Positions 48,298 through 50,638 of a stretch of 64,000 nucleotides of DNA are shown here, piece by piece. The notes under the pieces were generated by a model. It was not told the DNA's origin. It saw only the letters and a program-made list of their open reading frames with translations, and did not search any database. The stretch spans positions 43,299 through 107,298 of the forward strand of contig JBKAGE010000042.1 of the NCBI GenBank assembly GCA_046290225.1, given 5' to 3'. The position numbers and the translations under genes are program-made. The stretch's first letter is position 1. Each line of letters opens with the position of its first letter. This DNA is from Bradymonadia bacterium (GTDB taxonomy: Bacteria; Myxococcota_A; Bradymonadia; UBA7976; UBA1532).

Positions 48298-48670
48298 GGG
48301 CGCGCGACCATCTGCCTCGTTGCCACACTCTCACTTGTGGCCCGATATGGGCCAACTTTGTGGCGAAGACCTTTAAAAATCGCGGCATTGTGAAGGTAGA
48401 GCGGGCCAATGTCAACGACCTCGGCCACATGTAGGGGCGCCGCACGCCTTGAGAAACGCGGCAGGTGTGGAGTTGTTACCTGAATCTGGCCATCGAGGAT
48501 GAGGGCCAGGTTGTAGAAAGGGCGGGAGCGGCCCGACATAGGGATTTCGTTACCTTAGGACCGTTATATTTACAGTTGCTCTTACTGAGGCCAATCTCAG
48601 CAGTGGGCGCGAAGGGCCTTCGAGACCCATCTCACTCCTCCCTCGCCCACATGGCCGCTCCCGAAAGATA

Positions 48671-48711
48671 TGGGTGCCCCTGGAGGGAATCGAACCCTCG
48701 TCTCCACAGTG
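48671..48711 (-). pseudogene. 3' half of a tRNA-Glu-like gene
   Basis: CACTGTGGAGAC-GAGGG TTCGATT CCCTC-CAGGGGCA; matches the 3' halves of both tRNA-Glu genes; 5' half not found. Confidence 0.75.
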
Positions 48712-48916
48712 TTTTTCAGAGCCTGCCCTTCGGGCGCTTCTTCGCTCCTACGCCCTGTCGGGCTCCGTCGACTCCGAAGCGTCTGGCCACAGGCCAGACA
48801 GGCTCGCTCGCAGCATTTTTTCAGAGCCTGCCCTTCGGGCGCTTCTTCGCTCCTACGCCCTGTCGGGCTCCGTCGACTCCGAAGCGTCTGGCCACAGGCC
48901 AGACAGGCTCGCTCGC
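48712..48916. repeat. Two identical 100-bp tandem structured repeats (period 105)
   Basis: 48712-48811 equals 48817-48916; GAGCCTG...CAGGCTC closing stem with internal hairpins; degenerate copy at about 48950-49010. Confidence 0.9.
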
Positions 48917-49067
48917 TTACGCTCGCTGTTCTCTCTCAGCGTTGTTTGAGAGCCCACTCTTCACAGCCTCCGTCGTCTCTGAGGCATCTGGTTTCAGAGC
49001 AAACAAGCTTTCTCGTTTGTACTCGCTGCTCTCTCAGCATTTCTGGCTGGATCACTCCAGACCTCAA

Positions 49068-49143
49068 TGGATCCCCCGGCTGGATTCGAACCAGCATCTT
49101 CGCGTTCAGAGCGCGACATCCCCAACCGTTGAACGACAGGGGA
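49068..49143 (-). tRNA. tRNA-Gln(CTG), CCA encoded
   Basis: Cloverleaf; anticodon arm TCGCG-CTCTGAA-CGCGA; T arm GCTGG TTCGAAT CCAGC. Confidence 0.9.
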
Positions 49144-49155
49144 TCAGATGTAATT

Positions 49156-49233
49156 TGGCGTCCCTGGCGGGATTTGAACCCGCGCTTCCACAGTGAAAAT
49201 GTGGCGTCCTGAGCCTGACTAAACGACAGGGAC
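49156..49233 (-). tRNA. tRNA-Glu(TTC), CCA encoded
   Basis: Acceptor GTCCCTG/CAGGGAC; anticodon arm CCACA-TTTTCAC-TGTGG. Confidence 0.9.
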
Positions 49234-49271
49234 ACGAGCCGCTCTGTGAGCGGCGAATTTCTTTATTTTTG

Positions 49272-49343
49272 CGGCCCATACCGGAATCGAACCGGTCCAC
49301 AACCGATAGACAGTCGGTCAGCACCCCTTGCGCTCGATGAGCC
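49272..49343 (-). tRNA. tRNA-Asp(GTC), atypical, copy 2
   Basis: Acceptor GGCTCAT/ATGGGCC; anticodon arm ACCGA-CTGTCTA-TCGGT; C8 and U37 are non-canonical. Confidence 0.8.
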
Positions 49344-49353
49344 ATCATCTAAG

Positions 49354-49425
49354 ATCCCCCGGTAGGACTCGAACCTACATCACCGTGGTCAAAGCACGGG
49401 GTCCTGACCATTGAACGACAGGGGA
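49354..49425 (-). tRNA. tRNA-Gln(TTG)
   Basis: Anticodon arm CCGTG-CTTTGAC-CACGG; T arm GTAGG TTCGAGT CCTAC. Confidence 0.9.
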
Positions 49426-49499
49426 TCAACCACCCCAACCAGAGCCCACCTGCGACACGGCGCCGGGGAGCTCCGGAGGTTTCGGGAGTGGACCAAAAG

Positions 49500-49572
49500 T
49501 GCTCGGGGACGGACTCGAACCGCCGACGCGCTGATCTTCAATCAACCGCTCTACCAACTGAGCTACCCGAGC
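49500..49572 (-). tRNA. tRNA-Phe(GAA)
   Basis: 5' end GCTCGGGTAGCTCAGTTGGTAGAGC; anticodon arm GTTGA-TTGAAGA-TCAGC. Confidence 0.92.
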
Positions 49573-49647: not shown

Positions 49648-49721
49648 CGTCCCTGGCGGGATTTGAACCCGCGTCTCCACACTGAGAACGTGGCATCCTT
49701 GGCCAGCTAGACGACAGGGAC
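49648..49721 (-). tRNA. tRNA-Glu(CTC)
   Basis: Acceptor GTCCCTG/CAGGGAC; anticodon arm CCACG-TTCTCAG-TGTGG. Confidence 0.9.
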
Positions 49722-49733
49722 AGTGTTTTTAGG

Positions 49734-49950
49734 GAGCCTGCCCTTCGGGCGCTTCTCCGCTCCTCCGGTTGGCATTCGCCACCCTCCGTCGGCTCCGAAG
49801 CGTCCGGCCACAGGCCGGACAGGCTCGCGGGCTGACGCCCGCTATTTTCTCTCGGGGTTTCTAGGAAAACCTGCCTTTAGGGTGCTCCTACACCCCTACA
49901 GCTTCGCCTTTGTCGACTCCGAAACATCTGGCTACAGGCCAAAAAGGCTC
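49734..49950. repeat. Two further diverged copies of the ~100-bp structured repeat
   Basis: 49734-49826 reads GAGCCTGCCCTTCGGGCGCTTC...CAGGCTC; more degenerate copy at about 49866-49950. Confidence 0.8.
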
Positions 49951-50131
49951 GCCCGCAGATCTCTCTCAACCTTTCTCAAAAACGCCCCCTTCAAGTACCT
50001 CTCCATCCGTATCCGCAAACCCCAGCCAGCAACCACGAAAGGCCGGGGGCCGCGGAGCTCCGGAGGTTTTGGGAGTGGGTGGCTGGCCGGCGAGGCGCCC
50101 GCTCCCAAAGCCGGAGGAGCGGAGCAAAAAG

Positions 50132-50203
50132 CGGCCCATACCGGAATCGAACCGGTCCGCAACCGATAGACAGTCGGTCAGCACCCCTTGCGCTCGATGA
50201 GCC
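50132..50203 (-). tRNA. tRNA-Asp(GTC), atypical, copy 1
   Basis: Differs from 49272-49343 by one base in the variable loop. Confidence 0.8.
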
Positions 50204-50374: not shown

Positions 50375-50417
50375 AAAGCAAAAACGCCCACCGCTCCAGG
50401 TTGTGGAGGGGTGGGCG
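50375..50417 (-). terminator. Intrinsic terminator (putative attenuator) upstream of the tRNA array
   Basis: CGCCCACCCCTCCA-CAACC-TGGAGCGGTGGGCG followed by TTTTTGCTTTC. Confidence 0.8.
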
Positions 50418-50444
50418 CCGGGCCTAACCGTAAAGAATCAACGG

Positions 50445-50543
50445 TTACGCGAGGTTCCCCCCCTCGATATCCTGCTCAAAGCGCTCTTGTTCCTGCTGGA
50501 ACAGGGCGCATTCGAGCACATCGGTATCGAAAAAGCAGAACAT
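50445..50543 (-). CDS. Putative leader peptide MFCFFDTDVLECALFQQEQERFEQDIEGGNLA
   Basis: GAGG RBS 5 nt before ATG; 17 of 32 codons are Phe/Asp/Glu/Gln; stop lies 27 nt before the terminator stem. Confidence 0.75.
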   Translation of the reverse strand: MFCFFDTDVLECALFQQEQERFEQDIEGGNLA

Positions 50544-50609
50544 GGTGGCCTCAAATCAATCGGGTGTTGGAAGGCGCTCAAGAAGTGATGAGCGCCGTTG
50601 ACGTGACAA

Positions 50610-50638
50610 TCAATACTGGTGACTGTTCAGCGTGTCAA
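50610..50638 (-). promoter_or_regulatory. Putative sigma70 promoter of the leader/tRNA operon
   Basis: Perfect -35 TTGACA, 17-nt spacer, weak -10 TATTGA; A-tract upstream. Confidence 0.55.

Follow-up and report, generated by a model that had tools for sequence, protein, structure and literature searches.

A codon-rich leader likely to act as a ribosome-read attenuator ahead of accessory tRNA genes in a Bradymonadia genome

The window, by which we mean the whole 64,000-nt stretch of Bradymonadia DNA that was analyzed, carries on its (-) strand a short open reading frame (ORF) followed by two hairpins and a group of tRNA genes. Flanking genes encode an imelysin, a di-haem oxidoreductase and a glycosyltransferase. 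The features upstream of the tRNA genes are as follows, in the order of transcription (positions are those of the window; G023 is another genome of the class).

50610..50638, (-): sigma-70-like promoter, inferred by sequence (TTGACA, 17 nt, TATTGA)
50549..50552, (-): Shine-Dalgarno-like GAGG, 5 nt 5' of the ATG and kept in G023
50445..50543, (-): leader ORF of 32 amino acids, MFCFFDTDVLECALFQQEQERFEQDIEGGNLA, with Asp, Glu, Phe or Gln codons at 17 of the 31 positions after the start
50525..50540, (-): predicted protector segment, codons 2-7, which in untranslated RNA would pair with 50469-50455, a stretch that contains the G-run
50457..50465, (-): G-run, the 5' strand of the antiterminator, codons 27-29 (GAG GGG GGG), 18 nt before the stop and Shine-Dalgarno-like
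50425..50447, (-): stop-codon hairpin of 7 bp, with the TAA stop at its 50447 end; 7/7 pairs kept in G023
50375..50419, (-): intrinsic terminator, in which the 5' arm segment 50415-50406 (CCC-A-CCCCTC) is the partner of the antiterminator

The genes downstream of the terminator are seven tRNA genes on the same (-) strand rather than biosynthetic genes; a partial tRNA and a possible further RNA lie behind them.

50131..50203, (-): tRNA-Asp(GTC), divergent, with an odd D arm and U37; below the Rfam gathering score
49647..49721, (-): tRNA-Glu(CTC)
49499..49572, (-): tRNA-Phe(GAA)
49353..49425, (-): tRNA-Gln(TTG)
49271..49343, (-): tRNA-Asp(GTC), second copy, 99% identical to the first
49156..49233, (-): tRNA-Glu(TTC)
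49068..49143, (-): tRNA-Gln(CTG)
48669..48710, (-): 3' half of a Glu-like tRNA (family D3; 74-79% to Glu tRNAs), after copies of a ~100-nt repeat
48524..48662, (-): an RNA that may also belong to the operon, with 42 nt of 23S-like sequence inside a closing helix

All six focal anticodons have a housekeeping gene elsewhere in the genome, and the focal cluster is therefore a spare one. Its anticodon loops differ from those of the housekeeping copies in six of six cases (24 of 37 genome-wide), a difference that could reflect foreign origin alone. U37 is present in accessory Asp tRNAs of the focal genome (G000), G023, G077 and G067, and G37 in the accessory Phe tRNA of G000 and G023. The first tRNA-Asp(GTC) is about 94% identical in G023, where the changes in its stems are paired. 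The ~100-nt repeat lies at 48706-48943 and 49721-49983 and also on contigs C34, C41 and C70 (21 BLAST hits in the genome); several copies abut tRNA ends, and the repeat may have split a Glu tRNA. Right behind the tRNA 3' half, within a fold at 48662-48524, the 42 nt at 48573-48532 (-) are 90% identical to E. coli 23S rRNA 1910-1950 (E 9e-12), in the helix 69-71 region. The assembly is without a real 23S gene, and the 231-nt fold around the 23S-like stretch is unremarkable (z -0.94). No counterpart of the stretch was found in G023, G077, G067 or G015, and the match in G013 is a true 23S gene. The stretch is possibly an rRNA mimic.

Codons cognate to the downstream tRNAs are strongly enriched in the leader (17/31 vs 6.1 expected, p 1.6e-5), to a degree equalled in 0 of 5000 base-shuffled open frames. 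The control codons of the leader match the tRNA genes that would be regulated, as expected of an attenuator; two Cys codons count against the match, the gated cluster being without a Cys tRNA. Also in keeping with an attenuator, the short ORF has a ribosome-binding site and lies behind a promoter, which we infer from its consensus. A TTGAC hexamer is found upstream of eight of the nine leaders compared, the ninth having TTGCAT. A simple consensus scanner flagged neither the focal terminator nor the promoter-like site, and only tRNAs reached the gathering score in an Rfam search.

The terminator hairpin (50419-50383) has a predicted energy of -27 kcal/mol (z -4.98) and is followed by the U tract UUUUUGCUUU, which places an intrinsic terminator ahead of the regulated genes. 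An initial annotation of this DNA had noted that leader codons 27-29 are complementary to CCC-A-CCCCTC in the terminator 5' arm and that a separate hairpin contains the stop codon. Both pairings were recovered, the former between 50465-50457 and 50415-50406 and the latter at 50447-50425 as a 7-bp helix (z -3.43; matched by 1/200 shuffles). When the RNA is cut before the terminator 3' arm the predicted fold consists of the antiterminator and the stop hairpin (-35.1, z -4.1), and when the whole leader stretch is folded the terminator wins (-45.5). The antiterminator pairing is real and above chance: the duplex between the ORF tail and the terminator 5' arm (-21.0) is equalled by 2 of 500 dinucleotide-shuffled ORFs and by 33 of 2000 random genome 36-mers. 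The annotation had made its proposal depend on the antiterminator being competitive when ribosome footprints are masked. In the foldings the antiterminator forms before the terminator 3' arm exists; once the RNA is complete, the balance tips to the terminator by 6.6 kcal/mol, with a barrier of 11.2. At equilibrium the terminator is also preferred for most stall sites (P about 0.9). The E. coli leaders thrL, trpL, hisL, pheL and pheM, folded alike, have terminator preferences of 3.9-24.8 and barriers of 6.6-17.2. The focal energies lie inside this range, so an equilibrium preference for the terminator is usual, and switching would depend on the order of folding. One could also suppose, given that the terminator is the equilibrium fold and that about 170 nt separate it from the first tRNA, that it is constitutive and closes a small-peptide gene, the tRNAs using a downstream promoter of their own. 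We consider this extremely unlikely: no TTGAC hexamer is present between the terminator and the first tRNA, and the paralogous peptides described below share composition rules, not sequence; no Pfam family was found.

In modelling translation, the RNA 5' of the ribosome's leading edge was removed, with the edge placed 9-15 nt past the A-site start; the masks assume that a ribosome at the stop covers the G-run. The antiterminator forms for A-site stalls up to codon 22-24, a range that takes in 13-15 of the 17 cognate codons; with the ribosome at codon 24-26 or further it no longer forms. The earlier suggestion that a ribosome stalled in or before the FQQEQE run leaves the G-run free for the antiterminator holds in these foldings, and the open window even extends past FQQEQE. 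Computationally, then, the leader has a mutually exclusive antiterminator that is free while the ribosome is on the control codons, comparable to the E. coli controls, and eight other units that were scanned have the same ribosome-position step. A conserved protector helix that joins the first codons to the G-run, not mentioned in the initial annotation, is both predicted and covarying, two of its pairs being improved in G023. In ribosome-free RNA the G-run is at first paired with codons 2-7 (P 0.90), and the antiterminator is later briefly favoured across a barrier of 8.6; the modelled outcome for untranslated RNA is uncertain. The G-rich strand begins 15-19 nt before the stop in eight of nine units and resembles a Shine-Dalgarno site.

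We propose that a ribosome held up to about codon 23 would block the protector and free the G-run, allowing the antiterminator to form before the terminator 3' arm has been transcribed. Once beyond about codon 25, the ribosome would remove the G-run, and the terminator would form. In untranslated RNA the G-run would first be buried in the protector, and pairing of the G-run with 16S rRNA while the ribosome is at the stop could hold it shut. Slow decoding of the cognate codons would in this way let RNA polymerase enter the tRNA genes.

The focal genome contains a second set of tRNAs of this kind: 42 of 96 ARAGORN calls belong to clusters in which divergent tRNAs are grouped according to amino acid, with boundaries that we set (a relaxed run gave 650 calls, mostly false, and served as a lead only). 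A full unit of leader, G-run, hairpin and terminator is found at five clusters, and a sixth has the leader only. Besides the focal leader, cognate codons make up 20/34 in the Arg/Lys/Val/Ile leader, 20/34 in Leu/Ser/Tyr, 24/58 in Ala/Gly/Thr, 2/25 in Trp and 14/36 in Cys/Met/Pro, and the six leaders each fit their own cluster best (1/720 permutations). The Cys/Met/Pro unit has no convincing terminator, and its Met tRNA was identified by eye. At L037 1239-2498, a Cys/Met/Pro/His-rich ORF with a poor terminator is followed by a Cys tRNA and a nucleoside-hydrolase gene, and then by a Met-like tRNA, which ARAGORN did not call, and a Pro tRNA. A search of the 112 other class genomes for the Ala/Gly/Thr cluster gave no match, and the focal genome's own Arg pair on C24 is cut at the contig end. 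The Asn/His and Pro(TGG, CGG) clusters are without leaders and have sigma-54-like sites. In L036/L266 (G000:C34 about 374600-375660) a sigma-54-like site precedes tRNA-like RNAs with a conserved anticodon-loop insert, followed by Pro tRNAs and a TROVE-domain gene; this looks like an RNA-repair module, and the arrangement at L087 of G077 is similar. RtcB has three matches in the genome (G000 C51, C8 and C54), none on a contig that carries a leader unit. A tRNA with the amber-reading anticodon CUA lies behind a small ORF at L039 1196-1268 (-) (G000:C14:27995-28067). The design is also found ahead of trpE (L265, G000:C79 about 226900-227200, -), where WWWW, four Trp codons, is followed by a G-run and a terminator as in the focal unit. 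Given this like build, the lineage also employs the design in its classical role.

A detector blind to composition, whose thresholds were chosen once these units were known, matched 5/48 clusters in the focal genome, 2/26 in G023, 0/21 in G077 and 0/20 in G067, four clusters being skipped for short upstream sequence. All seven matches are non-housekeeping clusters, and two known units, the G023 orthologue and the G077 unit, were missed. Out of sample, in G095 and G099, the unchanged detector reported 2 of 41 clusters, one matched (L303) and one unmatched (L288); relaxed settings brought in two further matched clusters (L276, L283) along with two that were unmatched. The leaders were partly chosen after seeing their composition, and those for Trp, Pro and Leu are weak by count (p 0.04-0.08). 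Ahead of housekeeping tRNAs, the best of many ORFs gave p 7e-7 for Pro/Arg, with no terminator. A genome-wide scan is no basis for counting attenuators: it yielded 28 rows from 354 terminator-like sites, and two known units were not among them.

Such units are carried by four other genomes in three families (G023, G077, G095 and G099). Among the 112 other class genomes the focal leader has a match in G023 only. The orthologous cluster in G023 comprises Asp, Arg(GCG), Arg(CCG), Phe, Gln(TTG) and Glu(TTC) tRNAs, with no Gln(CTG), and its leader has seven Arg codons (CGC, CGT, CGG) vs one in the focal leader, three of them arising via CAG to CGT/CGG. By count alone this difference (1/31 vs 7/31) has p 0.053. 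One G-to-C change in the G023 G-run is matched in the antiterminator, where a G.A mismatch becomes C-G, and in the protector; the terminator has two double-sided changes (A-U to G-C and C-G to U-A), and the U tail is weak. G023 also holds Pro and Leu units. In G077, of another family, a leader ahead of a 16-tRNA array takes 39 of its 42 residues from the array's 10 amino acids, with 10/10 represented; the Glu/Asp cluster of this genome is cut at the contig end. G095 and G099, of a third family, were located through a divergent Ser tRNA and have Leu/Ser/Tyr and Asn/Cys/Gly/Phe/Ala/Thr units. One further Leu/Ser/Tyr leader was found there by composition, and 13 of 14 further loci had no convincing leader. 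At L283 (G095:C658) a tandem pair of leader-terminator units lies ahead of one nine-tRNA cluster. Altogether, when 15 leaders are compared with 11 tRNA sets, 14 have their best fit with their own, several leaders being homologous, so that there are fewer than 15 independent cases. In G067 a 13-codon Arg/Glu/Asp ORF with a Shine-Dalgarno sequence and four Glu/Asp codons (L241 1405-1363, -) precedes a Glu/Asp tRNA cluster. This unit, a possible variant, was left out of the count, as the hairpin after the ORF is without a U-tract terminator.

The fit of leaders to clusters bears on the idea that the same RNA switch is mainly a general sensor of translation stress, such as antibiotics or slow ribosomes, in which codon identity matters less. 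The antiterminator is predicted for a ribosome stalled anywhere in codons 2-23, and in the available text of the respective papers ribosome-targeting antibiotics induce the tRNA array of Anabaena (PMC8421152) and an E. coli uORF responds to several antibiotic classes (PMC12121999). A sensor of this type would have no need for a leader composition that tracks, and shifts with, each cluster, and we regard it as unlikely.

The spread of the units is patchy. The focal leader or Asp tRNA has a match in 2 of the 112 other class genomes, and G015, of the same genus as G023, has 45 tRNA hits vs 57 and none of these clusters. The odd Asp tRNA pattern had one match in genome contigs (the G023 locus) and 0 in metagenomes. 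Phages gave no match, and plasmids matched the Phe tRNA only, among the matches listed (25 of 93 records). The Arg(GCG) pattern was found in 6 of 401 phylum genomes and 119 metagenome stretches; none of the 124 loci drawn by it had a convincing leader, that at L119 being weak. Two arrays, with 17 and 26 tRNAs, have no leader, and an array of 30 is cut upstream; the leaderless arrays indicate that tRNA arrays do not share the design as a rule. The patchiness, together with the repeat copies, the tRNA half and the odd tRNAs inside the cluster, would fit remnants of a tRNA array that was captured from a phage or mobile element and whose expression and selection have been lost. This is very unlikely, in that frame, length and helices are conserved across genera with compensatory changes, the flanks are ordinary metabolic genes, no phage family appears among 36 proteins scanned or the four long proteins of the window, and viral sequences had no match to three patterns.

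Overall, the codon-rich leader, G-run, stop hairpin and terminator before the seven Asp/Glu/Gln/Phe tRNA genes probably form a ribosome-read transcription attenuator that is on when these codons are decoded slowly, as judged from sequence comparison and modelled folding. The initial annotation had called it a starvation-ON attenuator. The polarity and geometry of that model hold computationally, but the gated genes are tRNAs, which would make tRNA shortage a likelier signal than amino-acid starvation. The ribosome cannot distinguish why a codon is slow; because more tRNA helps little against amino-acid starvation, the selected signal would be the loss of usable tRNA. The best reading of the predicted switch is a trp/thr-style attenuator serving as tRNA-supply feedback. 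Such negative feedback would act on the supply of usable tRNA, whether cleaved, unmodified, uncharged or outrun, with one amino-acid group per operon and accessory tRNAs topping up the housekeeping set. It would represent a known mechanism with a new target, tRNA genes, and a layout that partitions the code, a reading well supported by comparison. In the openly accessible literature surveyed, we found no report of leader-peptide control of tRNA genes. More tentatively, the set may be a back-up decoding kit split into operons with re-edited codon test strips, triggered when anticodon nucleases, whether from rivals or from phage defences of the cell itself, destroy housekeeping tRNAs, while the altered loops of the spare tRNAs escape these nucleases; we see this as possible, though doubtful.

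If true, the attenuator would provide codon-specific feedback on tRNA gene transcription, a new target of attenuation, and the purpose and switch-on of spare tRNA sets would become testable. Each leader would name the decoding failure that its operon answers, the G000/G023 pair would constitute a natural swap experiment, and the leaders could serve as reporters of tRNA damage.

Among known systems, the trn operon or L-array of Anabaena PCC 7120 resembles the focal set in consisting of supernumerary, patchy, anticodon-redundant tRNA genes. According to the available text of the papers describing it, it is one 26-gene array under a DNA-binding repressor, TrcR (PMC8421152; PMC10272220), and is induced when translation suffers (PMC8421152). 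In contrast to this one long contiguous, repressor-controlled array, the 42 accessory calls here are spread over several clusters of at most 10, in several operons each with a codon-matched leader; G077 has one array of 16. The available text of PMC8421152 has 0 mentions of attenuation, leader, T-box or riboswitch. Phage tRNAs with altered anticodon loops have been proposed to evade nucleases (PMC10264068); the focal loops are altered likewise, but that idea concerns phage genes and is a hypothesis, with no regulation described in the available text. Closest in mechanism (available text of PMC3082878) are E. coli thrL and pheL, which like the focal unit have a short cognate-codon leader and an antiterminator competing with a terminator that is favoured at equilibrium. 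ThrL also shares the position of the antiterminator strand in the last codons and the sensing of more than one amino acid. Both gate biosynthetic enzymes, whereas the genes here are tRNAs, and the units here have longer leaders (26 to about 70 codons), would sense as many as 10 amino acids and form a set dividing the code. More generally, classical attenuators (trp, thr, his, phe, pheST) gate genes for the synthesis, import or charging of the amino acid, and the focal unit does not. In pheM-pheST the leader gates the synthetase for its own codons, of one amino acid; decoding machinery is gated in both cases, a synthetase there and tRNAs here. T-box riboswitches bind tRNA directly, with no translated leader, and tRNA status sets the choice between terminator and antiterminator, a choice that would likewise be tied to tRNA status in the focal unit. 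A T-box assignment for the focal unit was rejected, with no T-box match in Rfam at the gathering score or at E up to 5. In sequence and predicted folding, the focal unit has the leader ORF, control codons, terminator and antiterminator of an attenuator, together with a putative protector, and departs from the known ones in the kind of gene regulated.
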